Of a stretch of DNA of 64,000 bases, positions 42,440-64,000 are shown one piece after another. The stretch's first letter is position 1, and the number at the start of each line of letters is the position of its first letter. A program made the translations under genes and the position numbers. Under the pieces are notes generated by a model. That model was not told where the DNA came from. It saw only the letters and a program-made list of their open reading frames with translations, and did not search any database. The stretch comes from Microbotryum violaceum (Eukaryota), in the NCBI GenBank assembly GCA_001244265.2, contig CDLV01000009.1, forward strand, positions 930,001-994,000. The letters run 5' to 3'.

Positions 42440-42611
42440 GAACGTGGGGGTGGGGCGAAATGAAGGAGCGCATAAAGCGCAGAGGAGCGCCAGAGTGCGC
42501 CAGATGAAACAAGTCCCCGGAGTCGATCGCTGCCGAGGGCTGTCTCCTCTCACTCTCCCTCTCCACGCTCAGCCCCTGACTCGCCTCGCTTCCCATCCTC
42601 GCGCCCCAGCC

Positions 42612-43304
42612 ATGTCCCTTCAATCCCTCAGGACCTCCCTCCTACACTCAACACGGTCCCTGACTCAGACCCGACCCAGCCACAGTACCGTACTCACAAG
42701 AAGCTCGTTCATTCTTCGTCGCTCGCAACATACTCTTTCGGCCACGCCAGAGCAGTTCAAGGACGCGATCAAGTCCGAACAAACGACCCTGGTGGACTTT
42801 TATGCTGAATGTTCGTTCCATCTCACTGCTTGGGGATGCAGCAGTCTATCGAACGTCGAGTCGCAGCTCGCTTTGATCTCCGAATTCCCCACAGCTGACG
42901 TTTACACGTCCTAAATGACATCCCTACACGTTTGCAGGGTGCGGGCCATGCAAGCAGCTCACACCCGTTCTCAAACAAGTAATCCCTTCCGACTCACAGG
43001 ACGTGCATTGTGAGTCCAGTCATTCCTCTCCGGCGCATTCTCCTTCGCCTGCTCCGAAAGCTGACAAATCCTTACCTCACCTCCTCATGGGATAAAACTG
43101 CAACGTTCTGGTGGATCCCCCTACTCTCAACCGAGAACAGTGGTGACAATCGATACCGATGACCACTATGAACTCGCGTCGGAGTACAAGATCAGCGCCT
43201 TACCGACCGTGATCGCGTTCAGAAATGGGGAACCGATTGGCAAGTTCGTTGGAGGGAGGAACCAGAGTGGGGTCGAATCCTTTTTGGAGGAGGTGCAGGC
43301 TTGA
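42612..43304 (+). CDS. Thioredoxin, probably mitochondrial
   Basis: Ser/Thr/Arg-rich presequence. LVDFYAE-WCGPCK (the W codon is split by an intron), IDTD..ELASEYKISALPTVIAFRNGEPIGKFVG. Confidence 0.92.
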
Positions 43305-43495
43305 TGAGGAAGGTAAATGAGTATATCGATTTTTTGGAGAGATACTGCTGTGTGAGCCGGTAGATCCTTTGACATTTTAGAATCGTGAGGTCACGTGCAA
43401 GCGACGATTAGCCCGAACGGGCGCAACATATGCGGTGTCATGGCTATGATTACAACAATGAGGTTCCACATTCCATCGTAAAACACCTAGGGCAC

Positions 43496-44380
43496 TCATT
43501 CTGCGTTCGGTGCAGATGGGTTTCCTTCCCTCTCATTTGTGGCAGCAGCATCTTCATCGTCGGCAGTCAAAGATCCGGTCGTTTCGAACGCATCCTCGGG
43601 TATCTTGCCCTGCGAGTCGGTCAGGGCCCCTGAATGGAAAGAGATACGATGATGAGCTTCGGAGCCCTTCATAAAAGAGATCCTGATGGATTGGGGACGC
43701 ACCCGCTAGTAAAAAAGTGGCATCGCCTTTTCCTCCGGGAATGGTCTCGTACGCGACTTGGAGTTTACACCTCGCGCAATGAAGCGGACCTGTAGACCCA
43801 GAATCGACTTTTGACCGCGTCAGACTCTGAAGAACACAAGAGTCGCATAAGCGGCCCTTGCATTGATAATGCTCAGACCTACGTTGGTACTCGTACACCG
43901 TTGAACCCTTTTCGGGATCGACGAAAGTGGACAAGATTTCGCGCCCTGGCTCGGCGTTAAGTTTGTACACGACGCGATGATCGCCTTGGTTCCTTAGGGC
44001 GTAGGCTTGATCTGATGGTCGTCGCGGAAGGTTCGCGAGTTGGGCTTGGGCGACGAGAACGAATTCACCCTGTGAAATGGGAAATCGTGCGTTAGCGAGC
44101 CGGTGTTGGTGAGTTGGAATATGTGGAGTCGGGGATGGAAGCGTACGCATAGGCAGTAGTAGATGGTCAGGGACTGGAGAACAAGTTCTGTTCGGTATCA
44201 GCCAAAGTTTACACCACTCCTTCCTCTCTGGATCGCATGCTGACTGACGGAATCCACAGGGTCAACCTCATCCTTGCTCTGCGACACCGCGCCTCGCGCG
44301 ATCATTTTGGGCCTAGGAAGGGTGGGCATTCGCGGATCAGCTTGGGAACAAAAATTGGAAGTGAGTGTGACAACGCACAT
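43496..44380 (-). CDS. STEEP1/CXorf56 (UPF0428)-like protein
   Basis: Spliced MPKMIARGAVS..SLTIYYCLC-GEFVLV..QLANLPRRPSD..YEYQRR..HCARCKLQVAY..GAL resembles the CXorf56 family pattern (YYCLCG..LP.RP.D..C..C.L). Confidence 0.8.
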
Positions 44381-44592
44381 GTTGGGCTGCGGGAGGCTAC
44401 GGCTGGTATGTTAATATGGAGGAAGGAGTGAGACAGAGAGAGACGGGGAGAGCTGGGGAGAGAGAGAAAGAGGAACGCGCCAGTTGAGCCAAGTCGTGCC
44501 TCTCGTTCCTTTCCCGTCTTTTCCCCCAGTCTCACCGGCTTGACAACGCACCCTTGCGGAAAGGATCAGCCCCATTCCAATAAAAGGATGCC

Positions 44593-46227
44593 ATGACGGA
44601 CCGATCAACCACCTCGCTCGATCTGACCGAGGTGCTCTCCTCCGCGCTGCTCCTCCCCCACCCCGAGATCAGCGACGAACTACTCTGCCTCGCCGCCATT
44701 TACCCCGACTTGAGCGTCCGACGAATTGACGACCGTTCGATCGAGCTCGAACTTGGCACCTGTCTGAACCACGATGACGACGACGCTCACGAAGACGCCA
44801 AGGGCGCCGCGCGCCGCATCCCTTTTGAGCTCGTGCTTTCGATCCCCTTGCAGAGCTACCCCGAGATCGAACCTCCTCTCATCCAACTATCGTCCGTCTA
44901 CCTTGGTCCTTTCTTCATCCTTCCCGAACTGCACCACCAAATTCATCACTGCTTCATTCAACCCGTGCCATCCTTGCCGGATCCGATCACGGGGAGAACA
45001 GAGTTTTCCTCGGCAACTCAGGGGGAAGATTTCATCCAGGTCGATTGGACACCGGGCCGAGTCATCCTCTTTGACGCGGTGCAGATCATTACTGACAAGT
45101 GTAGTGCTTGGTATCGAGAGCGAGTCAAGGAGGTGAACGAGGTGAAACACGATGCAACGGCGGCAGCGGATTCGGCGCGGGAGGTAGGGGGCAAGTATGA
45201 GAACGGGTTGGCCTCGGAGGATGGGATCTCTGAAGCGGTGAGACGCCTGGAGTCGGATGAAGAAGACGTGTCGTGGGAATCATCGTTCAAAAAGAAGGAA
45301 CGAAGCGTCGCGGCCTCGGATGGCATCAAGATTTGGTCCTCGGACCCGCTCGTCCATAGAAAGTCGGTAGGTGCTTCAGGGCCTCGCCTCGCGATGCTTG
45401 GTCAATTGATGGTTGGCTGACTCAACTGCTTGCGCTATGATCTTCTCTGAAGGTGTTTGTGGGGCACGCTGCTAGAGTTCGTTCACAGGCCGAGGTGAGG
45501 AGCAAGGACATTATTTGCTCGTATTCGGGACTCGTCACCGTCAAAGTCGAGTAATTGACGAGGGCTCGAGCTGACCCTAGCTCATTATCACCACTCGCCT
45601 AACTTTATGAATAGGTCGACCAAGTCATGTCGGAGCTCTTGTCCGACAAGAAGATCGCCAAGGCATCGTGAGTTTTCCATTCCGTCTCGCTGCCAGATAT
45701 GTCTTCAGCTTCCGGAGAGGGTATCGCCATCATTGCTGACAAAGTCGCAACACCACATATTTTCTTATAGACACAACATCACGGCCTTCCGATATCATGA
45801 CTCGGAGACGCACGCACTGTACCATGACGTCGATGACGATGGTGAAACAGCAGCCGGGGGTCGACTAGGGCATCTGTTGAGCCTTCTTGTAAGTCGAAAT
45901 GTCTGCGACAGGGCCGAAGCTTCATAGGTCGTGGATGCTGATGCATCTCAGCTTCAACGCTCATGTAGCAAGTGGAGAACATCTTGGTTGTTGTGACGCG
46001 GTGGTACGGAGGCATTCACTTGGGTGCCGATCGCTTCAAATTGATTAACCAGGCAAGTGGCATCGCATCGGCTTTGGTGCGCTGGAAAATCATGAGCTGA
46101 CTCTCAGATCGTCCTGTCGCATCTCGGGATCTTCGATTGGCCTCAGGCGGCCCGGGATGCTCTTCAAATTGGTGGATTTTTGGCTGATGAAGCTATTGGG
46201 AACAAGAAGAAGTCGGGGAAGAAATGA
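44593..46227 (+). CDS. Yih1/IMPACT family protein (RWD plus UPF0029 domain)
   Basis: RWD domain (DELLCLAAIYP..YPEIEPP). RKS-VFVGHAARV, DKKIAKAS-HNITAFR, DDDGETAAGGRLGHLL, VVVTRWYGGIHLGADRFKLINQAARDAL. Confidence 0.92.
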
Positions 46228-46415
46228 TACGCCTCGGGCACGCCGGTCCAAGGGCCTAGGGAACTTCTCCCGTTGAGGCATGTATTCGAGACTGTTGTTG
46301 TATTGTTAACTCTGAAGGCCGACTCTTTGCTTCATTAGGTGTGAGAAAAATGATGCATTCCACTGCTAGTGATACATAAGATGCAAAGCCGGGACCGTGC
46401 TGTCGACTCGGTTGC

Positions 46416-46871
46416 TCACTTCCACTTGAACCATTCGAGCCAGCTCTGGCCTTTGACGACCTCTCCCCGCGAGGCTCGTGCGATCCCATCCTGCATGCGG
46501 GCGTAGTGCTTGGGGAACGAGGCGGGTTTGAGTGTCTTCTGCGTCATGGGATACTGTTGGTCAAAAGCAAGACGAGGATGTTCAAGGGGTGCCTGCGAAG
46601 AACGAGCACTCTGCGCTCGATGGATCGGCGGACAACTTACCGATTTCAAAGCGTCATTGGCCAACAACCTCGTCAAACTGTCGTGCATCTCTTGCGCCTT
46701 GAGGATCTGCTTCTGACCGAGTTCGGCCGCTGCTGGGGGGGTTGCGAATACGCGATCGACGGCGGCTTGGAGCGAGTCGGAGAATTGGAGGGTGGGGCGG
46801 AGGGGGTCTTTGGGCCATCGGCGCGCGAGGGAGTGCAGGGAGGTGCGCAGTGTTGTCGAGGACATGGACAT
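46416..46871 (-). CDS. Cbp6/UQCC2-like cytochrome b assembly factor (one in-frame intron)
   Basis: RRWPKDPLRP, SLTRLLANDALKS-YPM..LKPASFPKHYAR..SWLEWFKWK. Confidence 0.8.
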   Translation of the reverse strand: MSMSSTTLRTSLHSLARRWPKDPLRPTLQFSDSLQAAVDRVFATPPAAAELGQKQILKAQEMHDSLTRLLANDALKSVSCPPIHRAQSARSSQAPLEHPRLAFDQQYPMTQKTLKPASFPKHYARMQDGIARASRGEVVKGQSWLEWFKWK

Positions 46872-47038
46872 GTTGGGCGGGGTGAAAAGGTGAAAAGGTG
46901 AGTGGTGGATGTTGGGGGTGGGCGCTGTGGAATGAGCTCCGACAAGAAAGCTCCGACAAGAAGCGGGAGCGAGGGCGAAGTGCGATCGTCAACTTACAAG
47001 TGGCGGCGGTGGGTGCGAACCAAGTCAAATCGCCAATC

Positions 47039-47232
47039 GCCGATAGCCGATAGCCGATAGCCGATAGCCGAGCAGAGTCCTGTGTGACCGCTGTTGTAGA
47101 ATGCGCGGGCCCTGCCAGTTACTAGTGAGTGTGGACAAGGTGGTCCGTACTTTTATATTCTACTGACCTTCCTCGGCGCGCCCGACGTGTTGCAGCGATC
47201 GGCCGAAACCACCCGAAACCACCCGAAACCAC
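47039..47232. repeat. Short tandem repeats (GCCGATA)x4.7 and (CCGAAACCAC)x3 in the Cbp6/Rrp7 divergent intergenic region
   Basis: Located at 47039-47071 and 47203-47232. Confidence 0.85.
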
Positions 47233-47399
47233 ACTCGAAATTACTCGCTCTCGATCACTTCAGGGGCCGCTCACGAGCGTACTTCGCAGCCCGCAGCCGA
47301 CCGCCTTCGTTCTGGTCGATCGCGCCCACCCACCCGCGCAGCTTCAACGCGTCGAACGATTGACCCGCCAAGTGATCGCCTCGCTCAAACCGATCACAT

Positions 47400-48839
47400 A
47401 TGGCTCGTCTATCAACCCAACCTACTCCCGTGGCAGCCTCAGCCTCAGGTTCAAGCTCGTCCAAGTTCAAGCCCGTCGCTCTCAGATCCGGATTCTACGC
47501 TCTCCCTCTCGCCGTCGCTTCATCAGTGTCCTCCTCCTCGTCCAAACGCAGCTCCACTTCAAGCATTGCCGTCGAATACATCTTTGTGCGCGCGCACCAC
47601 TCGTTCAACTCGGCACAGGACGATGACGAACCTGAGCAAGCTGTCGCCGCTTCGACTTCGACGACGCTCTTCCTCACCGGATTGCCGCTCGGAGTGACCG
47701 AAAACGCTCTACGGAAACTGTTCAAGTCTCTGTACTCACGCCACAAGATTGTTACCGTGCAACTCTTGCCCTCGCCGAACGCAGCCGCAGCTAGCAATAC
47801 GCTCCTCGCGAGGGAACTCGCTTCCGTCTCGGCCACTCCTTCGATCGACCCTCTCTTCATCAGCTCCGACGCGATTGAAGCCAACTCGATCTCTGTTGCG
47901 CAATCAGCTTTGATGACCTTTGATTCCACACCTGCTCTGCCCCCACCGGTCCCCTCGATCGTCCCATCGTTGTCGGTCCCGAAATCCCCAAATTTTCTCG
48001 CCCGAGCTCGAGCCAAGTACGACCAGGCGCGACCTCATCGATCCATCGTCATCTCTCACACCGACACGTGGATGCAGAACCATGATCAAAAGAAGGCCTC
48101 TCTACGCCCTTCTTCCGCAGCCGCAGCCGCAGCGACGGCCACGACCTCGGCCTCGTCCTCGAAGAAGGGCAAGAAAGCCGCCGCAAGGGACCCCGGACCT
48201 CTACCCGGTTCGGCCGCGTTCGCTTTGGCCCAATACGCGGCCCAACAGGCCCGACTCGCTTCGGCTTCCTACAACCCCGACGACCATACCGGTCCCCAAG
48301 ACGCCGAAGGCTGGACCTTGGTCTCCCGTGGCGGAAGGCACGGTACGTCCGCTTTGGACGTCGAGGCCCTTCAGAATGCCACGACCGACGGGTACGGTGG
48401 TCGAGCCGTCAAGGTCGCGAGCAAGACTTGGCTCAAGGGGCTCGAGGGCGATGGCGCGACCGATTTGGAGACGGGTCAGAGGAACATCGTAGGCAAAGGG
48501 TTTTATCGGTTCACCAAGTCGGACGAGAGGAAACAAGGTCAGTTTCACATTCGGGAGTTGAGGCCAAAGAGAACAGATTTTGGCTGACCCGCTCACGTGG
48601 TCGTCGCTTCTTTTGTTGTAGAACTCGCGGCTCTCAAGGATCGCTTCGAACAGGACAAGGGTCGGTTGAACGAGTTTCGCGAATCGTACCGCGGACGTGG
48701 GGGCCGAGGTAGTCGAGGTGGGGGAGGATCCGGTAGAGGTGGTGGTGGTGGATCGGGGCGAGGTGGGAGAGGCGGCTCGAGTTCGAGAGATAGACCAGGG
48801 CGTTCGAACGACGGTGAGAAGAGGTACAAGCCTTATTGA
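47400..48839 (+). CDS. RRP7: Ribosomal RNA-processing protein 7 (2 exons)
   Basis: YIFVRAH..TLFLTGLP (RRM-like), DAEGWTLVSRGGR, FYRF..ERKQ-ELAALKDRFEQDKGRL..RYKPY. Confidence 0.88.
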
Positions 48840-49154: not shown

Positions 49155-52100
49155 TTAAACGACCCCTATGGTCCCACCTAGGACACCCCCTACGGCTGGC
49201 GCAGCATTGTACGCCCTCATTTCGGAGATCCCGACCCCGTTTCTCGCTACCGCGGAGCCGGTGATGGTGAAGCGCAACGAACTCGTCGTCTTGCCCGCTC
49301 CGAGGTTGATTTGGGTACCGAACGGCGACAGGACGCCAACGCGGGCTGTCGAGCCATCTGAAAAGGTCAAGGTGCCGGCTAGGATCGCGTTCAGCAGATT
49401 GACGGGAGGGAACAGGACCACGGTCTTGATGAGGTAGCTCTGGGGCCAGGTGAGCTGAATCCAAGCCGGTACGGTACCAGTGCCTGTCGACCATTCTTGC
49501 GCCGCGTTGCCCGATCCATCGAGCTGGAGACCACCAATAATTCCATCGTTGGCGCCCGACGGCGGAGAGCTGGCACGGAACGACGACGCGGTCGCCGTGA
49601 CCCCGGGGAGGCGAGCGATGTTGACGTTGGACGGCTGTGCTGTGCTCAAGCCTGTGGGGGTCGTGGAGGCACTGCTGGCACTGCTGGTGCTGGTGCTGCT
49701 CGCCGACGGCGACCTCGTGGACGATTGGGGCGTGGTCGTCATCGACAGCGAAGACGCCGGGGAAGAGGCGGTGCTCGAGGCGGCGGACGAGGACAAGGAA
49801 GACGTAGAGGACGAGGAGGCGGCAGTGCTAGATGACGCCAACGAGGAAGACTTAAAGGACGAGGAGGCGGCAGTGCTTAAAGTAGAGGATGGACCCGTCG
49901 TGGTTTGCGGCGCGGTGGTGTTCGACGTATTCGTTGTGGCCGCAACAACCTGGTATTGATAGCATTCACTGCCGATACTGCCCGCGAGAGCAGTGTACGA
50001 TGCGCACACTCCTGGGACGTAATGAACCCAGGAGGCTTCAGCAATGTACATGTTGCCGGCGTTGTCGCCGAAGGGGTACACGTCGGTGTGCGTCCAACAT
50101 TCCTTGGTTCTGTGCGAGGTGGCCCGGAGGCCTACAGATCAGTAAGGGAGGCGACCGATCGGAGGGCCTCGCATAGGTACGTACAAAGCTTTCCAGTCGA
50201 AGGAAGTGCACTGCGTACGGTCGCACCTGAGACCGCACGCGTTCGCTGACAACTCGTTGGTTGAGGACTGCAAGTCGGCACTTCAGTGGATCAGTATTGG
50301 CAGTCTCGACAGACCACCCAGCATCTTCTCGATAACTCCACTTACCGCAATGCCCGCCGTTACTCGGGTACCGTTGTAGGTCGCGTAGCTGCGGAGAGAT
50401 CCAGTCGGCTGAGGAGAATAGGCTGGCGAGGGAGTCGTCGTCGTCTTGGTAGTGGTGGCGGAGGTGATCGACGTCGGAGACGTAATCGTAGTTGATGCCG
50501 TCGTCAACAACGACGAAGCTTTGGTGGAAGGGTTCGTCCCAAGCGTCGAGTTTGATACCGTCGTGTTCGCGCTAGTCGTTGAGTTCGCTAGGGTCGTGTT
50601 GGTCAAGGTCGAGTTTATTGACGTCGAATTGGCCAAAGTCGAGTTGGCGATGGTGGCATTGGGTGAACTCGAATTGGCCAAGCTGGTGTTGCCCGAAAGC
50701 GTCGAGTTCGCCAGCGTCGAGTTCGCCAGCGTCGAGTTCGCAAGCGTCAAATTCGTGCCAGCGCTCGAATTGGTGGTCAGTGTTGAGTTCACTAAAGTCG
50801 AGTTGCTCAAGGTCGAATCTGGGATTGTCAAATTGGCGGAGGTTGAATTAGATTCATTCGTGGCATTGGAGTTTGCCAGGGTCGAGTTGACCAAGGTGGA
50901 ATTGGCCAAGGTCGGGTTGGACAAAGTCGCGTTCCCCGTCGTCGTCGAGTTTGTCAAAGTAGAGTTGGCGAGAGTCGAATTGTACATGGTCGAGTTGGCT
51001 GAGCTGGCGTTACCGGCGAGCGTCGAATTGTCAAGTGTCGAATTGCCAAGCGTCGAGTTAGTGACCGCTGAATTGTACGAGGTCGAGTTGGTCAGGCTCG
51101 AATTGTCCGCAAGCGTGGAATTAGACAGCGTTGAATCGCTCATGGTCGAATTGAGGTCGAATGTCGAGTTCGTCAAAGTCAACTTGGCCGAAGTCAAATT
51201 GCCAAGCGTCGAGTTCGCCAGAGTTGAATTGTCAAGAGTTGAATTGGCAAGGGTCGAGTTGGCAAAGGTTGAGTCACTGAACGTCGAGTCACCGAAAGTG
51301 GAGTTCGAGAATGTCGAATTGCCTGCAGTCGAATATCACATTGTCAGAGCCTGTCTCAAACCAGTTTAGAACGAAGACAGCCGGCGCAGCGACATACCTA
51401 AGGTCGAGTTACCAAGCGTCGAATTGCTCAACGTTGAGTTCGCAAGTGTCGAGTTGCCAGACGTAAGCGTCGAGTTCGTCAAAGTTGAATTGGCCAGGGT
51501 CGAATTAGTCAGGCTTGCGTTTCCCGCGAGCGTCGAGTCAGTCAGAGTCGAGTTGTCGAGGGTTGAATTGGCCAGGGTCGAGTTGGTAAGGGTTGAGTCA
51601 CTGAACGTCGAATTACTGAAAGTGGAGTTCGAGAATGTCGAATTGCCTGCAGTCGAATATCACATTGTCAGAGCCTGTCTCAAACTAGTTTAGAACGAAG
51701 ACAGCCGGCGCAGCGACATACCTAAGGTCGAGTTACCAAGCGTCGAATTGCTCAACGTCGAGTTCGCTAGTGTCGAGTTGTCAAAAGTCGAGTTACTAAG
51801 CGTCGAATTCGTCAAAGTTGAATTGGCCAGGGTCGAATTAGTCAGGCTTGAGTTTCCCGCAAGCGTCGAGTCAGTCAGAGTCGAGTTGGCCACGGTTGAA
51901 TTGGCCAGGGTGGAATTAGCCAGGGTCGAATTGGCCAGGGTCGAATTAGCCAGGGTCGAATTAGCCAGGGTCGAATTGGCCAGGGTCGAGTTGGCCAGGG
52001 TTGAATTGGCAAGGGTCGAGTTGGCAAGGGTCGAGTTGGCCAGGGTCGAGTTGGTAAGGGTTGAGTTACTGAACGTCGAGTTACTGAAAGTGGAGTTCGA

Positions 52101-55100
52101 GAATGTCGAGTTGCCTGCAGTCGAATATCACATTGTCAGAGCCTGTCTCAAACTAGTTTAGAACGAAGACAGCCGACGCAGCGACATACCTAAGGTCGAG
52201 TTACCAAGCGTCGAATTGCTCAACGTCGAGTTCTCTAGTGTCGAGTTGTCAAAAGTCGAGTTACTAAGCGTCGAATTCGTCAAAGTTGAATTGGCCAGGG
52301 TCGAATTAGTCAGGCTTGCGTTTCCCGCAAGCGTCGAGTTAGTCAGAGTCGAGTTGGCCATGGTTGAATTGGCCAGGGTCGAGTTGGCCAGGGTCGAGTT
52401 GACGTTGACGGCTCCGAGCGCCGAGCTGGTCTCGACGGTGGAATTGGTCAACGTCGAGTTGGCGCTGCCGGTCGAATTCGCTGAGGTGTTGACGGGTAGG
52501 GCGCCGTAGACCATAATTTCCGCCAACCCGATGTTCGACGACGAGGGCGAGGCTTCGGTGACGGTCATGGTCAAGACCGATGCAATGATGGGTTGCGCCA
52601 GGGCGACAGAGGTAGCCGAGCCGTTGTTGGCGAGCGCGCCGAACGACACGACCGCACCAGAACTGAACGTGAGCATACCAGCCGTGACATGATCGGCGAG
52701 ATTGGGACGATCGTACAGGACGACCTCGTTGATCTCGACGTTGGAAGGCCATGTCAGCGTGAGCCAAGCACCAACGGTTTGGTCCTGGGTCGCCCACTCT
52801 TGCTGCCAGCTGCCCGAGCCGTCCTCCTTGTAGCCGCTGACCTTGCCGTCGTTGGCCTTGTCGGGTCCTTGGCCGGACGCGCTCGAGGACGCGGTCGCGA
52901 TCGCGTTCAACGCGAGGTCCACGCTGGTGTCCGTGGTCAGTGAGATGATCGCAGACGTCGAGTTGCTCGTGGTAGCCGTGTTGTTGCTCTGGACATAAGT
53001 CGTGTTGTTCATGACGAGGTCGGGGGTTTGCGACTTTGAGTAAAATACGCCCAGCTCGGCCAAGCCGACCGAATTCGACGAGGATCCAGCGCTCGTCACG
53101 GTGAAGAGCAGCGTGGTCGTGTTAACTGCCGCAGTGAGGTTGACCACGGTGGCCGAGCCATCGTCATTCAGGCTCGGAATGGTGACGGTGGTACCGTCGC
53201 TGAAGGCGACCGTGCCGCCCGTGATCCAATCGTCGGGATTGGGCCGATCGTAGAAAACGAGAGAGTCGACCATGTAGTAACTCGACCAGGTGAGGCTGAG
53301 CCATGCGCCTGTTCCTTCTCCCTGGGTCGCCCATTCGGCGGTCCAGTTCGATGGGTAGCCCGAGATGACCCCGTCATTCGCCCGGTCTGCGGTCTGCCCG
53401 CTGGCCCCGACGATGCCGAGGCGGAGGCTGTGAGAGCCAGATTCGAGTAGGCATTCGACGAACCTACGGTGCCCGAGCTCGTCGTCGTTGTCGACGTCAG
53501 CGTCGTGTTGACCGCAGTCGTACCCGACGAGCTTTGCGCTTGTGAGTAGAATACGCCCAGCTCGGCCAAGCCGACCGAATTCGACGAGGATCCAGCGCTC
53601 ATCACGGTGAAGAGCAGCGTGGTCGTGTTAACTGCCGCAGTGAGGTTGACCACGGTGGCCGAGCCATCGTCATTCAGGCTCGGAATGGTGACGGTGGTAC
53701 CGTCGCTGAAGGCGACCGTGCCGCCCGTGATCCAATCGTCGGGATTGGGCCGATCGTAGAAAACGAGAGAGTCGACCATGTAGTAACTCGACCAGGTGAG
53801 GCTGAGCCATGCGCCTGTTCCTTCTCCCTGGGTCGCCCATTCGGCGGTCCAGTTCGATGGGTAGCCCGAGATGACCCCGTCATTCGCCCGATCTGCGGTC
53901 TGCCCGCTGGCCCCCGACGATGCCGAGGCGGAGGCTGTGAGAGCAAGATTAGCGAACGCTCCTGCAGTGGTGGTCATGGTGCCGGACGTGGTATTGGAGG
54001 TGGTGTTTGATCCGGTAGGTACGCCCCCGACTTGGTTTTGCGAGTAAAAGACGGCGAGTTCAGCAAGGCCAACGGATCCCGAAGAAGGGCCCGCGCTGGT
54101 CACGGTGAACAGCAACGACGTCGTCGTGACGGCATTGGTCAGGTTGACGACCGTCGCTGAGCCATCGTTGTTGAGGCTCGGGATTGTGACGGTCGAGCCG
54201 TCGTCAAAAGTGAGCGTCCCCCCGTAATCCAATCACCGAGGTTAGGGCGATCGTAGAAGACGAGCGAATCGAGCCAAATGCTCTGAGGCCACGTCAGGTT
54301 GAGCCAAGCACCAGCGCCTTGGCCCGTGGTAGACCACTCGGCGGTCCAGTTTGCTGGGTAACCCGAGATGACGCCGTCGTTAACGCGGTCTGCCGGTTGT
54401 CCGTTCGCTTCCGAAGACGCCGTCGCCTGGGCCAGCAGCGCGAGATCCGAAAAGGCCGTCGCGCTGATGGATGTTGCGCTTTCAATGGCTCCGCCAGTGT
54501 CCTGGCACCCAGAACAAAGGTCACCGAACACCTGGATTTCGGCTAGACCGACGCTTCCAGTAGCAGCCGACACCGAAGTAAACTTGACGACCAGCGAAGT
54601 CGTGATGACGGTTTGCGACAAAGTGACGAGGGTCGCCGAGCCATCGTTGGCCAGAGCACCAAAGGAGACGCTCTTGCCATCGGCGAACGTGATCGTGCCA
54701 CCTTTGGCCCAATCGTTGACGTTGGGTCGATCGTACAAGACGATCGAGGTGACACTGTACGTGTCGTTCCAGGTGAGGGAGAACGTCGTGCCCGCTGTGC
54801 CACCGTCAGAAACCCACTCCGCCGACGAATTGCCCGGATAGCCCGAGATAATTCCGTCGATGGCTCGGCCCGGGACCTGGGTCGGGCCAGCATAGCTCGA
54901 GGCGGTAGCATTGGCGATGAGGGCGATGTTGGTACCGTTGGGCATGGTGACGGGCGACTCGGCCGATCCGGTGTACGATTGCTGCGCCAGCGCCGACGTC
55001 ACGACGTACTGTCGAGCCAGCCAATAGGACTCGCCACGGCCGGCGCTCGTGCAGTCTGAGTAAGATTGGCATTCACCCGAGTCAAAAGGCGTGTACTGGA

Positions 55101-56308
55101 AGAACGCGTTCGACTTGGCGACGAACTGTGCAGAGCCCGAGGTAAGGGTGGGAGCGAAGTTGTTGATCGGGTAGCCCATGTAGCCAGCTAAGTTGGCACT
55201 AGGTGCGGTGTTGCCGACCAGGGTCGAGGTGATCCTGGCGGTTGTAATGTGGTCGGAATGATCGCCAGCATCGTAGTCGCTCAGATAGTCGAGAGTGCGA
55301 ACGTTCTCGGCCTGGCGAGCCGTCAGGATGTCGCTGATGGCTTTCTTAAGCGTGGCAAGAGTGAAGGTCGCGCCGCCGTCAACGCTCGAGATGCTGGAAA
55401 TAGAACCAAAGTAGAGGCCACGAAGCGATTGGTAGCCGTTGGGGGCATACCCAGTCTGCAGAGCAACACGCAACGCTTTTGGTCAGCTTTCGCCTCCGAA
55501 ACGCCCTCTATGAAGACCGGCGGCGAAGCGTGAGAGCTTGAACTGACCCCATCGACGTTGCCATCCGGCAGCCGGAACCACACACGCTGTACCTGGGGTG
55601 CATCGACCAATGTGCGCACTAGCACTGGCTGCCCGCCGAACGTGGCAACGAATCTACGGCGCAGAATGAAAAGGTTTTCCGAGCGAGTCAGCAACTCTCG
55701 ACGAGGGCGTGCGCAGTTGAGCGTCTGCATCCCTGCCTTCACTCACTCTGTCCAGGTGTCGTCCACGTTAGCCATGTACGAATTTGCGGCTTCATTGCCG
55801 CTCTCACGAGCCTTTGCGTACGTCAGTCCCACGCCTAACGTGGGTTTCAGATGTTCAAGCGGCCATGGCAGCAGCGTCAGTCACGTGCGCGAGCCCGCGC
55901 AACCAGACGTCATCCCTGCAGTGGACTTACCCGAATCTCCAGAGGTGAGAAAGATGGTAGTGATACATGCTCCACTGACGACATCGGTCCACAGATCGGG
56001 AGATTGGAACAGCAGATCATCGTCGGGATGCGCGACGACGTACACGGTACCGCTGCGGAGGGTGGGGGTGGGAGGAGACGAAGAGCCGGGGCCAAGTGTC
56101 AGCGGAATGATCCAGTAACAAGGGAATAGGTTGTGCGCTGCGCTAGCTCGACTACTCACCCGACGCAACTGAAGACCGCGGCCGAGACTGCCGAGAGTTG
56201 GTAGCAGGTGAAGAGCAACACGACCGCGAGCCGAAGTAGCCTCGGAAGCGCGCCGGACGAGCGTTGGCGCGGCATCAGGTGCGCTGGGCGCAGGCGCAGG
56301 CGCATCAT
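49155..56308 (-). CDS. Large secreted modular protein: PIG-L/LmbE-family deacetylase, 6 CBM32/F5-8-like beta-sandwiches, NSTL repeat stalk, PAN/apple-like module (two 1-nt frameshifts in G runs)
   Basis: Signal peptide LLRLAVVLLFTCYQLSAVSA. VYVVAHPDDDLLFQSPDL, FLTSGDSG, ARESG, FRLPDG, DHSDH. Repeated NLAL.A.A.ASS..Q...A.DG..SGY...EW...G.W..LTW.....LYDRPN..D...GG..F.DG..L.NDGSAT..GLAE..V modules. Confidence 0.8.
50530..52490 (-). repeat. Coding 15-bp/pentapeptide repeat array (NSTL[A/S/T/G/D]) containing three near-identical 75-nt introns
   Basis: AA(C/T)TCGACCCTGGCC-type units. Introns at 51323-51397, 51647-51721 and 52115-52189. Confidence 0.93.
53038..53950 (-). repeat. Near-identical tandem duplication of one beta-sandwich domain (about 405-bp copies, 506-bp offset)
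   Basis: About 53038-53443 matches 53544-53950 almost base for base. Confidence 0.93.
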
Positions 56309-57628
56309 CGTTGTCGGGGCGCCGGTAGTGGCGCGCAAGGCTGGCTGGCAGGCGATCGACAGGCTGAGCGTTCCGAGCAATCGCATAATTGCAAGGGGCG
56401 GTAAGCACATCAGCGACCGTGTCCACCCCAACGAAGGAACATTCACCCTAATCACCTGACTACAGGTCCGGGGTATAGCACGTCCCAAGCAGCGACCTTG
56501 CGAATGTCCGATAGGGTTCGAGGGGTCGAGCAGTCGCGGCAGGGAACTGGATCGGCAGCAGAGTTCAGAGAAGGCAAGCCTGCTGGCCTTCAACCGTAAC
56601 GGCGTGTAAACGAAAGTGTAGGTTCTCGTGCGAACACGAGACGGTGTATTAGGAGCTCAAGCAATGAAGTCGAAGGAGCGCCAAGAGGGTGTATATGGCC
56701 GTGAGAGGGCGCAGTCAAAGATCGGACGAAGTTCGAATTGGTGATCCTCCATCGCCCCCGCGCAGGCGCAGCGCTATTACTGCCTCAACTCAGCTCTGAT
56801 AATAAGTTCCGTGCTGCGGTGACCAAGTTGGCCGTTGATTGCCCCGGTCATCCAGAATATCACCTGTGGAATTATAAACGTCTCCTCGCCTACAGGCAAA
56901 TAAACAAATTGTTCTAAGAATGCAGTTCTCTCTGGGCTGCCATGTGTGCCGACGACCAGGCTGGGCGAAGCAATTACCAAGCCCGGAGCTTGCCACATTC
57001 AAATCCTTTCATGAGGCCCGGGAGCCAGAGCCCGGAGCGGCGCGGGGGCGCGGGGGCGCGGGGACCGAAGTCGAGGCGCTCCTTCTTGAGACTTTCCTCT
57101 TTGGACTCGAGGGCGAAACCTAAGACAATGAAGTGCCTGCTCAGAGGATCGCTTCGGGACTTCGATGCCACCTCCTGCCGTTTGTTCTCCGAAAACATGC
57201 CATACACGGAAAGCATGTGATGAAAGTAACAAATCAACAAGAGAGCAAGAAGCTGAACTTACCTAGGCAAAGAGGGTGTTCCGATCTTTTCAGAAGGGCA
57301 CGTTGAATCAAGGCAGCAGCTGCTAGGGTGCGAATATTCACGGTAACAGGGGGATCTCTTAAGCCAAATTGAGCCACCCGCGAGCGTGCGCTGTTCAGCG
57401 CACACTCCCCGCTTCTTTGTCAACTCTTGCCTCGCATTGCCAACCACTCACCACAAGAGAATTGCCAGTCACTTCCTTCACTGCACCGCTCTCTGCATCC
57501 TACACTATCAGCTTCGCTTTTGGGACGCTCTTTACTCTCGATCTCGACCGCTTCTAGCGGCACAACCGCACCTCTACCTCACTCAGCCTCCGTCGCAATT
57601 GTCTCACCCAGCTCTGCGCTGCACCAAC

Positions 57629-58621
57629 ATGCGCTTCACATCGCTCACCTTTATCGCCACGGCTCTTCTGACCTATTCATCCGAGGTCATCGCACACGGA
57701 GTGGGAGCAAAGGCTCCCGGCTCCCTGCGCCCTCGACAGGCACAGTACGTTGATCCGTAAGTCGTCCGGACTCCGGGGCGATGATGGGTTGTTCCTGAGA
57801 CGCCGCCGCCTGCACGCCCTGGGGTGTCGTTAGGTGACGACGACGATCCGTTCCCATGCGAAAAGAATCGGAACGGGACGCCCGGAGTAGGACCATTATT
57901 TTTTCATAAATAAAGTCCGATTGACCAACTCTGGGATCCCTCTTTATGGATTGCAGTCATTACAGGGCCCGTCATCTCGCCGCACGCGCCGATGCCGGCG
58001 ACGGCGAAGTCTTGTCGGATGTGCCCGCCTCCGCAACGGCAATCGTAACGGTCTCCAACACCGCTCCAGCCGCTGCTGGACAAACCGCGGAAGCCAAGGG
58101 GTCGCTTCGCCTGGATGACAACAAGCTGCCCGACTGCTCGTCGGAAAGTGCCCTTGGTGGATCCTGCGATCCGACCACGGGATCTTGCTGGTGAGCTCGG
58201 TCGACCGGATGATCACCCCGCGTTCTGCTTCGCTGAGGCACAGTCGCCTTTAAATTGGTGATCTTCTTTAGCGGAGCTGGTTTGACTTGTCTCCAAAAGT
58301 CGTGCGCTCGTCTCTGCGGGGTAAGAAGTCTCGAGGCATACTGCGCCAACCAATCCGAATGCGACAACTCGCTGGGCTACACCTGCACCAACAACCGCTG
58401 CCGACCCCCATTAACCGCGGCCCACGTCGACAACGGTGAAGCATGTGATCAAGGTGGTGCCAACACCGCTTTTTGGTAAGTTCACTTGCCGCGATGTGTC
58501 GTGATTCCTCCGTGAAGACTGGCCTAATCGGTAACCTTGCCAAAATTCCACATTGCGCAGCATCCCGGGTCGAGGTGTCTGCATAGGGGGGACGTGCCAG
58601 CCTTGCACATTGCATACGTAA
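57629..58621 (+). CDS. Small secreted cysteine-rich protein (4 exons)
   Basis: Signal peptide MRFTSLTFIATALLTYSSEVIA. Spliced DCSSESALGGSCDPTTGSCC-GAGLTCLQKSCARLCG..YCANQSECDNSLGYTCTNNRCRP..EACDQG..FC-IPGRGVCIGGTCQPC. Confidence 0.8.
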
Positions 58622-59069
58622 TTTGTGCAACGATGTCAAGTATTTCAAGGCGTTTCGTCCCAGGTGAAGAATCATATCGTCACTAGAACATGACACATCA
58701 GTACGATCTTCCTGCCAGTCGCGCATCAGTGCACTTTTTGTCAATCCTAGACTTATGCGTGTGTCTTCATACTTTTGCTGCAATTTGACCGTCTATACAA
58801 CACACAATTTCGGCATCGACTGGTTGTGTAAGAGACTGATTCGCTTGTTTTATTTGGCCTTTCACGTACAAAGAAGTATACGAACGCTGGACGTCGGTCC
58901 CTCATGACAAAGGGATGTCACGTAGGGGACTCGGTGCCATGATTTGGAAGGAATTAATGTATTACTGATGACTACAACTACTGCAAGAACTAAATCAACA
59001 ATAATAATACAACAGCTAAAAAATTTGAGAAACTAATAGGGTTCTGACACACCGAGCCGAGCGGGCTCA

Positions 59070-61071
59070 TCATCGCTTGCGGGGTGGGGGAGGAGCACGG
59101 CGGTTCGCCTGCACTTTCGAAACGGGTGCGCCGAACTTTGCTTTATGTTCGGGGCCACTCCATACCGGAATGGCGCAATCACGTCCATCGGCAAAATATT
59201 CGAATGCAAACCAAACATCCGAGCCACAATCGGTGCCTTGTCGAAGAGCCATATTCTGCGCGAAGAGGTGAGAAAAACGCAGGTTAGGACAGGGGCTTCT
59301 GAAATCGTTCCTGACCCAGAGAGCTGCTCGCGAAGTACCTGGACATAGATTCGGGGCCAGTTTAAACGAGCGGCTTGGTTCCAAACGGGTTGCTCTTTGG
59401 CCGTGAACCTAACGCACGCCGAGCAGGAGTCGGATCGTCAGCTCCACACCTACGGGGAGGACGGAAGATCGCAGCCCGTGTTCCGGCGGGCCACCCGATC
59501 CCAAATCATGACTCACTTTTGCAGGGACGACTGTCGAATCGTCACCTTCATCGTTTCCTCTGCCCACCAGTCAATTCCTGCCGCTTTCCCGCCGTAGTAG
59601 CCGCCCTGCAAACGGTCGGAGCGGTCCAATTCGCCACCCGCGGTAGCGCCGTTAACGTAGTCAAGCCCAGGCGCAAAGGGCTCCTGAGCGGCTGAAAGCA
59701 CCAAAGTGTCGTCCGGAACACTACTGTAGATGTGGTCGAGCTTCTTCTCCAATTGCAAAAAGTTGTGCTTGACCGACGAGTCGCGGAAAGCCCCGGCATC
59801 GACCTGTGCGCAGCAAGAGTGGTGGCAGAGGTTTAGTTGATGGGCGCACGTGATCACGTCCGCCGCAACGCCCGGGAAAAAGACTTGCCCAGACAAAGTA
59901 CTCGGAGTTGTAGTAGTCTGCATCCTTGACCTGCTGGACCATCCACGGCTTCGCGGTCCACACCCCGTAAACGTCCGGCACGTGCCAATTCTTCTCAGGG
60001 TCGATCGAGTTCTGCAGCTTTGCCCATTGACGTCCGCCGAGGGTTTCAAGCGGAGGCATATCGAAAGGGTTATCGTAAGAGTCGATGATGGTAATCGGCT
60101 GCAGTGAAGGGAGCGGAGGGGAGGGAATGGGGAGGGAGGGTAAGGATGGCGCGCCAATTGGACGCTGAGCGGACATGATCAGTGAGGGGGAAACAAGTAG
60201 CACTTACTTTAGATCCTCGGAGACCCGTGATCAGAGGGCGCATCTCCGGGGCACAGTAGAACACGATAGGCAGTTCGACGTGACCGAGAAAGTTCGAGAG
60301 CCATGCGTGGTATTCTGCGTCACGAGAAAAGTTCCCAGGGGCAAGAACAGACGCGTGAGCGGACGCAAGATCGGGCGGGCAAGCGCGCGACGGGCGATTG
60401 AGGCATCTCGCGAGGGGAGCACGTGACCCACCGGAAACTCTATGTTTTTTACCGCTGTCGATGCGATAGAACGCAGAGATTAATGTTACTCGGCTCTCTG
60501 GTGCTTCATCCTCCACTACCTCGGCCGTGCCCGAGTGCGAGTGGGCCTTGGAGGCCGCGCCGGCGAACGATTGCGACGGCGCAGGGAACCTGACGAAGGC
60601 CGAGACGTCGAAGCCGGCCTTCGACCCGAGTTTTCCAACGGTTTCCAAGTAGGGCTGGGTGACGTTGCGGAGGCTCATCACACTTGACTTGCGTGATTCG
60701 GCATCAGAGTTCGTCATGGCCATGGCCAGGAAGAGCACGAATGCGACGAGCCAACCCAGCACCGCGACCGCACGAACTGAGTGGCGAGCAGACGGCGTCG
60801 AGGGGGCCGTTAGCCGGCTATACGAATCTCGCCGGTCGATGCGGTGATAGTGTGACGTGGATTCAGTCTTGGGATCTCTCAACTGGAGGCCCTGGTTCGA
60901 GCTGGGTCGCGAATCGTGCTCTTTCGAATAAGGCGACTCGGTAGAGCGAGCGGCCGTCGTCGACGTGCGTCGGTGGAAATTCGAGAGAGGGACGCTAGAG
61001 TTTCGTCGTTCCGACTCATAGGAGTCGAGTGAGCTGGGCTCATTCGAGACGAAAGGCAGCAGCTTGAACAT
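59070..61071 (-). CDS. Type II membrane putative glycosyltransferase (HtrL/YibB-like)
   Basis: One TM segment (VAVLGWLVAFVLFLAMAM). Luminal VTLISAFYRIDSGKKH..EYHAWLSNFL..PIVFY, DPEKNWH..YGVWTAKPWM..YYNSEYFVW-VDAGAFR, LQGGYYGG, KEQPV. Family assigned from remembered motif pattern. Confidence 0.65.
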
Positions 61072-63054
61072 GGTTGTGTCGTCTAGTGTTGCAGAGGGTG
61101 AAACACGACAGGCTGGTGACGGTCGGTCAGTGCACCCGGAGTGCCAGAACTATCAGTGATCGGCTGCTACACCTAGCTCCACCGCTGGCCGCCCCTTTGT
61201 TCCGCTGTAATTTCACCGAAAGGGGGATGGACGCGGGGCCCAGAACACCCTGAAGCCCAAGAGCCCATCTTATAGACTGTTCCAAAGTGTTCCAAAGCGC
61301 GCGAAGCGTGGCGCGAGCGCGAGGCCCTGTGCCTGTGAAGGCGACGAATGCGAATGATCCAGATCGCGCCCTTTATCATATCGCGCCGCTCGCCGGCTAC
61401 AGTTACTGGCCTGTCGATGGTACCTGGGTAAAGTAACTCCGAAATAGCTCCCTTCCCGCTTCATGGGGATTCTTTCTTTTTCAACGTTTTGTGCTGCGAT
61501 TAATTGGAACCTCCGGTTCGGTCTTGAGCATATTCGGAGCAGCAACTTCACCGGGGGCCACTGCACGAGGTGCAGGGACCGTGCGTGCGGTACATGCGCA
61601 CTGCAGCTCTCGCAATCGCCGACATCATCAGACCTTCAAGAAGCAGCCACCACCGAGTTTGGTGATCTAGGCTAGTGTAACCAATTACCGCCCACTCCCG
61701 CCCTTGGACACCCGTGATTTGTGCATCCGCTTTGGGAAGTTCAGCGCAGGCCCGGGTCGCGCGCCTGCGCGTGCACCATCTCACAGCGCACCGGTTCCCA
61801 CCAGCTCCCCAGGCGCAATTTGCGATCGGGACGAAGTACTACATAATTTCGAGTCCCCTGCGGTTGACTGCACCGTCGCGGCCGGCAAAACTTTCGACAA
61901 AAGGGACTTCACCTCCTTTCAATGCAGTTCACTTGCTGATTTGAAAGAGCCTAATCACATCGACCCGCCGAGTGCTTACTTTGCATACATTGACAATGGT
62001 GTTCCTGTTTGTGGGTAGATGAGTCGGAAGGACCGTCCAACACCTATTCAACAGAGCCGGGAGGCAGCGAACTGCTTTCACGCCGAGGCCACACCATAAA
62101 CTTTTCACTGGACTTCGGCAGGGCCTATTTCACAGCCGGTCCGTGCGTGCCCAGTGAGCGTAGCGTGAGAAGCATGGAATGACACTGCGCCGAGGACGCC
62201 GCCCCGATGTCTCAGCTTCACTGGAGCGTGTCTTACTTTGTCGGGATCCGCAGGCTACGGGACCCAGCTCGGCCAGGGCCAAAACGTGACCGCGGGTGAG
62301 TGGTTGTTGTAGATTATTATAAAAATTAGTTGCTTTCCCCGAATGGAAACTGTCGCAATTCAGGACCTACACCGGTCTGATGGGCTACTTACTGCTTCAG
62401 GCACATGTTAGCTTGTGCCGAGAAATGATAATGGAAGAGGCTTGCTCCACGCAATCCTAAAGGCGGGAAAAAGGTTGCGCAGGCTGCGGGGCCGAGAGCG
62501 CGAGAGGGGGGCCGGGCAGTGGGCATTGGGCGCTGGGCACGGCGCATGGCAGGCCGGCAGGCCGGCACGAGCGTCATCTGCTCCGTCACGGTTGAGCTCT
62601 CACCCCCTTGTCACGAACATTGCACTTCGTCTGCGTGCTCACTTACCGAACCATAGGACTGGCCGGCTGCTCACCTGATCATTAACGGTCACCCTGATCG
62701 TACACCAGCCTGGTGCGACGTCTCTTTCTGCAAGCAGCGATCTCTTCGAGGCCGACCATCACGTTCTGATCGCCCATTTGGGACCGACTTTTCGTCACCT
62801 CGACCTCCACCTCGATTGATTCGGCGTCTGCGGTCCTACCTTTTCTTGGACACGAGATAGCACTCGTCCTAGCGCCACTCTCTAGCTTTGCCTCTCTTCG
62901 TCGACCACAACGTGTGTGACTGCCATTCGTCTCACCTGTTTCATCCTACCACAAGATCTCGGCGATCAGATCGACAGTAAGCGGATCGAGCGGCTCAAGA
63001 GGACCGTGTACATCTGCACAAGCTCGAAAGCTCGAGTAGGCGCAAGTAGGAGCC

Positions 63055-64000
63055 ATGTCGAAGGATCTTTCAGTAGTATCCCCAAGGGCTTTGAGTCTGG
63101 CGGCCGTGTGTCTACAATCGACAGTGCTGGCCATCGTGTAAGCCCACGCTCTCGGATCGTTCCTGCCCAATGTGCTCGCCCGATGCGAGCGCTGCTGACG
63201 ACCCCGAGGGGGTTTTGGCTGTAACCTTTGCAGTCTTCATATCTCTCAAGCAAAAGCAAGTCCCGGTGCAAGGTCGTACAAAGCCTCGAGTGCCGTCCTC
63301 TTGACAGGTGAGTTGTACGCTCAAGCGGGCTCGACGATGAGCGAGGCTGGACGATCGCTCCGACATTCGCCAGCCGGGATGGCGGGCAGGTGGGCTGGCA
63401 GCTCGCCGGGCCCATCTCCGAGTAATACGAGGCGTTTCCGGCGTCAATCTTAGATGTTCCCTGTACTCGCACTGACATACACCCCGTCCCACCCTATTTT
63501 GATGTTTGATTTTTTTCAGAACTCGGAAAACTATTGCTCTCCTTGTTGCTGGCACTGCGGGACGTGTGGAAGGAGCGCGAGGCATTGCTGGCGCCTAGAC
63601 ACCCCTTGCCTTCGCCAGAGCTCTATTCGTCGGGCTACGAGAATGGCAAGGACAAGTACTCGCTACCACCGGATGCGGCGCCACCAGAGTCTCGTCGACA
63701 CACACTCCGGCGACGGAGCTCCGCCATCAGCCTCGACCTGCGAATAGAACATCACGAAAAGGTGCGGCGCATGTCTGGCAAGTCGGCGCTCGCGGCGTTT
63801 CAATGGCCTCGCACAATGCTTTTCCCCGTGCCGGATATGAAGGACTCGCCACTGCTGTGTGGTAGTCCCGAGATTGTGAAGAGGCTCAACGACCCGACTT
63901 TGTGGACGCGGCGCCGTCGCCTGGGTCTGCGAGCGATGCTCTGGGAGGACATCTTTGGTTCCGACTGGTGGAAGATGGGGATTCCAGCAGTGCTCTTTGC
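63055..64000 (+). CDS. Nucleotide-sugar transporter (SLC35A/UDP-galactose transporter-like), runs off the window end
   Basis: Spliced MSKDLSVVSPRALSLAAVCLQSTVLAIV-LHISQ..RSYKASSAVLLT-ELGKLLLSLLL...IFGSDWWKMGIPAVLF matches SLC35A TM1-TM3 motifs. The ORF track misses it. Confidence 0.75.

Follow-up and report, generated by a model that had tools for sequence, protein, structure and literature searches.

A predicted secreted LmbE/PIG-L-type de-N-acetylase with DUF7402 modules and a pentapeptide array at the end of a four-gene cluster in Microbotryum violaceum

The stretch of DNA analysed here, referred to as the window, comprises 64,000 nucleotides of the Microbotryum violaceum genome (positions 930001-994000 of contig C7, CDLV01000009.1, in a 33.2-Mb assembly of 20 contigs). 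In it, a four-gene cluster ends with the gene for a giant, predicted secreted deacetylase, which runs on the minus strand from 56308 to 49155 and has ten coding exons with nine GT-AG introns between them. The deacetylase forms a single frame of 2,129 amino acids once two shortfalls of one nucleotide each, both in runs of G, are bridged, while the spliced frame as deposited meets a stop at residue 594. A first-pass annotation made from the sequence alone had proposed one giant spliced protein of about 2,100 residues, and this proposal as well as its architecture hold, but the two frameshifts had been overlooked. The bridged frame aligns over its full length with a 2,073-aa model from Microbotryum intermedium (P0003), and proteins from Microbotryum silenes-dioicae, M. 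saponariae and M. intermedium match the large exon at identities of 99, 97 and 87%, respectively.

Public sequencing contigs from four of eleven runs were compared over positions 53340-56450. At the first frameshift (54217..54223, minus strand), where a G run is one base short, the additional base at 54217 is present in all three runs that cover the site, one unspliced and two spliced (X10 and X11), and orthologues read through, such that this frameshift is an assembly error read directly from public contigs. At the second (53405..53408, minus strand), four Gs stand against five in a twin module, unique contigs stop at 53408, a shared contig of about double depth carries G5 and the orthologues are likewise uninterrupted; here, contigs and twin module indirectly imply that an assembly error is probably the cause. 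Because X10 and X11 lack introns 1-4 at the modelled coordinates and also reveal a 92-nt intron in the 5' untranslated region (56364..56455, minus strand; loose end of the contigs at 56367, GT..AG ends located), the gene is transcribed and spliced. Introns 5-9 are predicted. For intron 9, the first acceptor (50132) was rejected as being out of frame, and the acceptor at 50110 is required for a Cys motif described below.

A pseudogene, or two genes in the form of a short N-terminal gene and a separate one for the C-terminal PAN-like and DUF7402 modules, would be in line with the two frameshifts in the deposited sequence, with the restriction of RNA-observed splicing to introns 1-4 and with the database models for M. 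silenes-dioicae and M. saponariae, among them P0001 and P0002, which stop at or inside the repeat. We consider it very improbable that the gene is broken or split, as the contigs restore the first frameshift site and imply the same for the second, X10 shows the same spliced depth for the unique pieces that precede module 3 (261) and module 4 (259), P0003 carries the full architecture in one model, and 18 proteins across the class finish in a terminal module. In addition, the published gene MVLG_01176 spans 7,666 bp and takes in the whole locus (PMC4469406, available part of the supplement). The pseudogene reading in particular is rejected by the public contigs together with the intact orthologues, and what lies at the locus is one expressed gene, intact despite two frameshifts in the assembly. 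As P0001 and P0002 end at or in the repeat, a shorter isoform may exist as well. One further base, at window position 53601 in module 3, differs from all four runs compared (Met vs. Thr), possibly through an assembly error or a strain difference.

The protein starts with a signal peptide (aa 1-43; 56180..56308, minus strand), assigned by hydropathy on the basis of a basic n-region, a hydrophobic stretch at residues 24-43 and a junction between AVSA and AVFSC, and in the orthologues a leader precedes the same conserved mature start. The adjoining LmbE/PIG-L de-N-acetylase domain (aa 44-308, exons 1-5; 54997..56179, minus strand) contains the complete metal-binding motif of LmbE enzymes, HxD1D2 plus a further His with D1 as general base (PMC4101496, available part), in the form of H58, D60, D61 and H224. 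The leader and both motifs named by the first-pass annotation, AHPDDD (H58, D60, D61) and DHSDH (H221, H224), are thus present, and the catalytic residues are nearly invariant across 60 fungal and bacterial homologues. The domain of P0003, which is 93% identical, scores 34.9 bits against the PF02585 cut-off of 28.2, with the window exons taken alone staying below this cut-off. A structural model of a 65% identical homologue (P0123; pLDDT 84) shows a Rossmann-like alpha/beta fold matching 3we7, 2ixd and 1q7t with Z scores of 14-16. The best match of the catalytic domain is diacetylchitobiose deacetylase (Dac; Z 16.0, rmsd 3.6, 188 aligned residues), followed by BC1534 (Z 15.9), the hydratase GalB (15.2) and MshB (14.1). 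No NCBIfam equivalog reached its cut-off for the catalytic domain and phmmer searches with this domain against PDB returned nothing at E<=10.

The protein is accordingly a member of the LmbE/PIG-L superfamily, which we take to be family CE14 of CAZy, and falls in none of its characterised subfamilies. Fold and HxDD+H motif are shared with Dac, BC1534/BshB, MshB, teicoplanin deacetylase and eukaryotic PIG-L, whereas the secreted, multi-modular chain of 2,129 residues sets the deacetylase apart, and identity to solved members amounts to 14-17%. The PIG-L/Gpi12 protein of the glycosylphosphatidylinositol (GPI) pathway is a small single-domain membrane enzyme of the endoplasmic reticulum that is required for growth. 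Identity with this enzyme was rejected in view of the size and the lectin modules of the present protein, the occurrence of a separate small PIG-L gene (MVLG_04145, 1,618 bp) in the available part of the published annotation, and the lack of a fitness cost in Rhodotorula toruloides, where insertion mutants in two large PF02585 genes stay within +/-0.26 among the supplement rows available (PMC5922974). The spacer between metal ligands 2 and 3 comprises 162 residues here vs. 97-148 in the LmbE enzymes covered by the accessible part of PMC4101496. The earlier view of the protein as a secreted LmbE-fold de-N-acetylase with CBM32/F5-8-like modules, unlike the PIG-L of the endoplasmic reticulum, is therefore supported, with catalysis being predicted.

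Five beta-sandwich modules follow in tandem (aa 331-1140; 52503..54930, minus strand), and a sixth is located close to the C-terminus (49206..49622, minus strand). All six, which the first-pass annotation had already delineated, belong to Pfam family DUF7402 (PF24135), with scores of 65-175 bits at a cut-off of 27 bits, and modules 3 and 4, which hardly differ from each other, are copies of recent origin. The modelled DUF7402 fold resembles those of CBM32 and F-type lectins (Z 16-17.7, rmsd 2.0-2.7), and a sequence match to a CBM32 was obtained at E 7.9e-5. The modules have in common with CBM32/F5-8 type C domains and F-type lectins the fold, the DG and C-terminal E positions and a loop arginine, but they constitute a Pfam family of their own and lack a His at the WHS position. 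The galactose site of CBM32 consists of His-Arg-Asn and the fucose triad of F-type lectins of His-Arg-Arg. In sequence alignments, the Arg of the CBM32 site is kept in modules 1-5 and lost in module 6, and, since the WHS position is devoid of His, binding of galactose or fucose should not be assumed. An identification as F-type fucose lectin is tempting because fucose has been reported in the Microbotryum wall; it was rejected as the module consensus features one Arg and no conserved His. In the literature found, DUF7402 is mentioned once, as a predicted K+ binder. The loop arginine, part of a DRP-type motif, occurs in 181 of 184 internal modules from Microbotryomycetes, in 295 of 301 others and in just one of 18 terminal modules, counted as those located after a long linker. 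This near-absence identifies the sixth module, which lacks the DRP arginine, as an old and distinct subtype.

The fifth and sixth modules are separated by an array of NSTLx pentapeptides (aa 1175-1719; 50541..52400, minus strand), which had been noted earlier with an estimated length of about 580 residues and actually comprises 545, with 82 regular units and 97 N-glycosylation sequons. Its self-identity is 0.61 at period 5 vs. 0.02-0.12 at other periods, multiples of 5 excepted. The array contains three near-identical 75-nt introns that differ by 1-2 of 75 bases, and units of exon plus intron have therefore been duplicated recently. An AlphaFold model of one 130-aa array exon is a beta-helix (pLDDT 91) that superimposes on MfpA (Z 19.0, rmsd 1.4 over 129 residues) and on SV2A (Z 14.2); the input alignment had been filled up with overlapping segments taken from the array itself, and the model pertains to the unglycosylated chain, glycans being ignored. 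The region models as a pentapeptide beta-helix, such that the glycosylated stalk proposed before is just one option; dense N-glycosylation could also result in an extended brush in place of a helix. The pentapeptide-repeat (Rfr) beta-helices of MfpA, Qnr and the luminal domain of SV2 likewise exhibit a period of five, with L or F at each fifth position and a small residue two positions before it. What differs here is the number of about 82 units, their location in a secreted fungal protein and the presence of a sequon in nearly every unit. An ice-binding role for a Thr-rich helix was considered and is unsupported, T-x-T occurring in 12 of 82 units. Seven orthologues from other genera or isolate classes feature irregular N/S/T linkers with period-5 identities of 0.14-0.32, and the pentapeptide rod arose within Microbotryum from a linker of this kind. 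In a yeast with 51% GC (L099-L102), giant deacetylase genes occur as a tandem pair, and the linkers are hexapeptide-like (NSTLIG/NGTLIG).

Downstream of the array, a PAN/apple-like Cys module (about aa 1768-1862, exons 8-10; 49959..50396, minus strand) is present as claimed earlier, provided that intron 9 ends at 50110. The Cys spacing is in place and PAN_1 scores lie below the cut-off (E 0.15 in P0003, 7.5e-4 in the paralogue P0037). Among 234 proteins searched, the module is confined to those from Microbotryum, and in Pseudohyphozyma a CBM1 occupies the slot ahead of the terminal module that PAN fills in Microbotryum. Only the pentapeptide rod and PAN are Microbotryum-specific. The protein ends with a short Gly/Val/Leu tail and stop (49155..49205, minus strand), and tails of similar type are found in orthologues. 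In red-yeast orthologues, the tail corresponding to 49158-49205 is longer and rich in GxxxG, and it may form a helix for oligomerisation or wall binding.

With more than 85% of the chain being non-catalytic, 125 sequons in the whole protein, module numbers that differ among near relatives (M. saponariae has six ahead of the repeat, compared with five here) and the exchange of PAN for CBM1 ahead of the terminal module, the protein could mainly act as an adhesin or surface scaffold, whose function depends on lectin modules and rod, with the deacetylase doing no more than trim its own or neighbouring glycoproteins. We regard this as unlikely, as neither a transmembrane helix nor a GPI signal is evident by hydropathy at the C-terminus, the catalytic residues are as strictly conserved as described above, and lone catalytic domains exist.

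With regard to distribution, 42 of 120 proteins listed are named Microbotryomycete proteins combining PIG-L with 3-9 DUF7402 modules, and the backbone has therefore been inherited throughout the class. The architecture is not a private expansion of a core in this fungus, as had been suspected. Catalytic-domain trees were calculated on 261 columns with 73 rows and, the long rows P0223 and P0230 being left out, with 71 rows; for the fungi, they draw on the best 120 of 1,200 matches. Microbotryomycete domains group with those from Saitozyma, the chytrid Zopfochytrium and three ascomycetes (SH-aLRT 99 with LG+G4, 94 with a mixture model), and this group adjoins Mixia and Actinobacteria (Curtobacterium, Blastococcus, Modestobacter), while ten Aspergillus rows form a separate clade. 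A tree with all fungi constrained to one clade is worse by 41 log units, and the AU test does not reject it (p = 0.087, determined on fast LG+F+G4 trees likewise without P0223 and P0230). On account of the nesting and the patchy spread among fungi, an old bacterial origin of the catalytic domain by horizontal transfer is likely. Horizontal acquisition, as put forward by the first-pass annotation, is consistent with this nesting among Actinobacteria, but the event would be old and a single fungal clade is not rejected; vertical inheritance, named there as a refuting check at the level of the Dikarya, applies to the class and, in the homologues found, not to the Dikarya as a whole.

The closest non-fungal relatives, here and below among the best 80 of 575 bacterial loci, are Actinobacteria sharing the PIG-L plus DUF7402 core, in agreement with the expectation that such secreted fusions are typical of bacteria. 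These exported proteins, in some cases with an additional PKD domain, stem from Curtobacterium, Blastococcus, Modestobacter, Actinomycetospora and Solirubrobacterales and resemble the fungal protein in a 35-44% identical catalytic domain, a signal peptide and DUF7402 modules with the same DRP motif. On the other hand, the fungal gene has introns, a terminal variant module, the pentapeptide rod and PAN and lacks PKD. The actinobacterial proteins are uncharacterised in the papers searched. In the literature found, which includes few subscription papers, there is neither a study of this deacetylase family nor a paper on Microbotryum combined with PIG-L, MVLG_01294, MVLG_01176 or AN8908. Aspergillus species harbour lone 275-aa secreted forms (A. 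nidulans AN8908) as well as 510-aa PIG-L plus PKD plus DUF7402 forms (P0237, P0256 and relatives) that resemble the bacterial ones. In Saccharibacteria (L026, L048, L056, L074, L087, L089), PIG-L is located at the C-terminus of proteins of 870-1,020 aa, and genes for GT2 and GtrA adjoin at several of these loci.

A gene for GT2, GT4, Wzx or GtrA resides within about 4 kb of the homologue at 29 of the 80 bacterial loci. Wzx is present at 14 loci from five lineages, one of these assignments (L085) being unconfirmed by Pfam; given a background of 11 Wzx matches in 18.1 Mb from five of these genomes, about 0.4 would be expected in the 0.67 Mb examined.

In the window, the gene divergent from the deacetylase encodes a Cys-rich secreted protein (57630..58621, plus strand; exons placed by eye) that matches MVLG_01175 by position and has syntenic homologues at L094/L096/L097 and L100/L102/L103, with no Pfam match on two exon pieces. 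It is followed by a gene for a type II membrane protein of about 512 aa with a transmembrane segment near aa 101-119 (59033..61071, minus strand; model and hydropathy), which matches MVLG_01174 and is syntenic in L096/L097. The label HtrL_YibB for MVLG_01174 originates from the PMC4469406 supplement, in its available part; Pfam scans of the exon pieces gave no match to PF09612, a genome search was silent, controls included, and one exon from these neighbouring genes was without a match in the Atlas. The HtrL/YibB family has been tied to lipooligosaccharide loci (PMC4172580, available part). In intron 3 of this gene (59886-59804), the frame is kept only with a non-GT donor, probably as a GC-AG intron. 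The fourth gene, matching MVLG_01173, enters the window with the 5' part of a fusion between a nucleotide-sugar transporter and a GT47 exostosin (62500..64000, plus strand; start approximate, continuing past the window end), whose Pfam domains PF04142 and PF03016 are located at C7:994246-995071 and C7:995867-996409. The fusion of a transporter with a luminal GT47 domain in one gene (L106:1200-4841, corresponding to C7:993200-996841) is kept in L096 and deserves study by itself. Downstream of the deacetylase, the housekeeping genes Rrp7, RWD, STEEP1 and UreF occupy 41742-48587.

Published loci were used as matching loci only, in the part of the PMC4469406 supplement available to us. A single offset puts MVLG_01174-01178 on window genes over 15 kb, and MVLG_01179, like its counterpart in the window, is an RWD gene. 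On water agar, in rich medium and in late infection, values are 68/22/12 for the transporter/GT47 fusion, 344/25/0 for the HtrL-like gene, 380/53/7 for the Cys-rich gene and 95/15/12 for the deacetylase (MVLG_01173 to MVLG_01176, respectively), such that all four genes peak on water agar. All five flanking genes checked, the small PIG-L gene and the other two GT47 genes are absent from the available differential-expression table. The upstream regions of the deacetylase, the HtrL-like gene and a paralogue on contig C4 have no common 9- or 10-mer. A Rhodotorula-like metagenome locus (L096, 69% GC) contains all four genes in the same order and orientation, as determined by tblastx without sum statistics, and nothing past the 3' end of its deacetylase matches the window. 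In the yeast with 51% GC, the Cys-rich gene is kept before the tandem pair of deacetylases. R. toruloides keeps three of the four as consecutive genes, encoding a UDP-galactose transporter (RTO4_8465, 3,382 bp), a small hypothetical protein (RTO4_8466, 785 bp) and a PIG-L plus FA58C plus CBM1 protein (RTO4_8467), none with a clear fitness defect in the available supplement rows (PMC5922974).

The adjacent glycan-synthesis genes had been overlooked by the first-pass annotation. They point to a self-made glycan as substrate, and the cluster suggests that in anther smuts and red yeasts a sugar polymer of the cell surface is first synthesised and subsequently de-acetylated. We give about an even chance to the proposal that the protein is a secreted zinc de-N-acetylase editing a glycan that the fungus itself makes, thereby yielding a surface polymer. 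The proposal is favoured by the intact metal motif, the conserved and co-induced cluster, the polysaccharide genes near bacterial homologues and a fusion of DUF7402 to an AA14 enzyme in this genome, described below. The transporter/GT47 fusion and the HtrL-like protein would build a glycan containing N-acetylhexosamine in the Golgi, the DUF7402 array would bind it with avidity, and D60 would activate a zinc-bound water, leading to release of acetate and leaving a cationic, sticky polymer. The N-glycosylated rod, PAN and the terminal variant module would hold the enzyme in wall or matrix without a membrane anchor, and the coat might help starved yeast-phase cells to adhere to surfaces or protect them there, as opposed to a role in late infection. 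Such logic, i.e., co-regulated glycan-synthesis genes together with a secreted de-N-acetylase, is known from the galactosaminogalactan (GAG) cluster of Aspergillus with its extracellular Agd3 (PMC4817252, available part) and is also apparent in the present cluster, the product of which is predicted. Unlike the GAG cluster, the four genes here encode an LmbE fold, a Golgi-type transporter-GT47, an HtrL-like and a Cys-rich protein, with no gene family in common; homologues of uge3, gtb3, ega3, sph3 and agd3 are absent among the neighbours (transporter/GT47, HtrL-like, Cys-rich, Rrp7, RWD, STEEP1 and UreF).

Several points weigh against a self-made glycan as substrate. Activity and substrate are predicted from sequence and context, the LmbE fold match extends to the hydratase GalB, and the published model of MVLG_01176 is marked SigP4_No in the supplement part available. 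Induction on water agar is a broad starvation response; in that source, the differential-expression table holds about 1,431 of 7,364 genes, and neighbouring table rows are mostly lipid and transporter genes. Two of the cluster genes are not independent because they share a divergent promoter region. Synteny was tested on one flank and in one species (L094-L097 are 98-100% alike), and the HtrL-annotated gene of R. toruloides (RTO4_11030) lies outside the cluster by gene number in the available rows. For the bacterial context, seeds came from the same loci, 51 of the 80 loci have no such neighbour and 8 of the 14 Wzx loci belong to Curtobacterium. Finally, the paralogue on C4 (L009:1625-7131, minus strand), a counterpart of the whole enzyme with PIG-L, four DUF7402 modules and a PAN-like module and without the pentapeptide array, has no glycosyltransferase among four neighbours checked, and its published match is induced more strongly than the cluster deacetylase (362/23/11, about 16-fold up on water agar; available table).

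The lack of cluster neighbours at the paralogue, together with the starvation induction of both paralogues, would also fit an enzyme that deacetylates chitin or chito-oligosaccharides in a Dac-like manner for starvation scavenging or wall recycling, the cluster being merely a conserved gene order. Dac is the best catalytic match, a chitosan-binding CBM32 is among the tied structural matches of DUF7402 (Z 16.2), modules 1-5 are acidic, and many homologues from Aspergillus consist of a single secreted domain of 275 aa. This remains the less probable explanation, with perhaps one chance in five: nine CE4 deacetylases are already annotated and two of the four checked in the available tables are the infection-induced ones, the co-induced GT47 and HtrL-like neighbours and the bacterial Wzx context stay unexplained, and structural Z scores, being tied within the family, do not reveal a substrate. 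Action on foreign N-acetylated glycans, i.e., those of bacterial or fungal competitors or host signals, appears more doubtful still. Secretion, modularity, a variable targeting slot (CBM1 binds cellulose) and the phyllosphere genera Curtobacterium and Frigoribacterium among the nearest bacterial kin speak in its favour, but neither plant nor microbes are present on the water agar where induction occurs, and expression is low in late infection according to the available table, the protein is conserved in saprobic yeasts and its neighbours are biosynthetic.

Taking the preferred reading of a self-made glycan further, we tentatively propose, as a possibility well short of even, that a surface glycan so far undescribed is assembled in the Golgi of Microbotryomycetes and de-N-acetylated, through a cluster dedicated to this task and consisting of a transporter/exostosin-type GT47 fusion, an HtrL/YibB-like transferase and an LmbE deacetylase derived from bacteria. 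The Microbotryum rod with its approximately 100 sequons may itself carry the glycan, resulting in a self-editing, proteoglycan-like coat that would serve starved, mating-competent cells. Heparan synthesis combines EXT proteins with an N-deacetylase, and the proposed system would echo this logic with unrelated parts.

The domain assembly itself is of a catalogued kind and inherited across the class; what is new is the cluster with its conservation and co-induction, the subtype of the terminal module and the pentapeptide rod confined to the genus. Extracellular de-N-acetylation renders bacterial and Aspergillus exopolysaccharides adhesive, and no comparable pathway for red yeasts or anther smuts turned up in the searches made. 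The cluster provides a first functional handle on three orphan families, i.e., exported LmbE enzymes, DUF7402 and fungal HtrL/YibB, and names four genes for deletion tests at once in the genetically tractable R. toruloides. The rod, in turn, offers a modelled case of a pentapeptide beta-helix arising from a low-complexity linker inside one genus. In practical terms, the locus is intact despite the two assembly frameshifts, and two database models are shortened.

Two observations lie beside the cluster. In the available supplement rows for R. toruloides, the HtrL gene adjoins genes for an O-fucosyltransferase and a DUF3431 protein (RTO4_11029-11033), possibly a second glycan cluster. In M. violaceum, an AA14 lytic polysaccharide monooxygenase (E 6e-44) is fused to one DUF7402 module (L010:3269-6064; contig C11, about 642300-645100, plus strand), Microbotryum having been reported without cellulases and xylanases, and AA14 enzymes with two or three DUF7402 modules are found in Rhodotorula and Phenoliferia.

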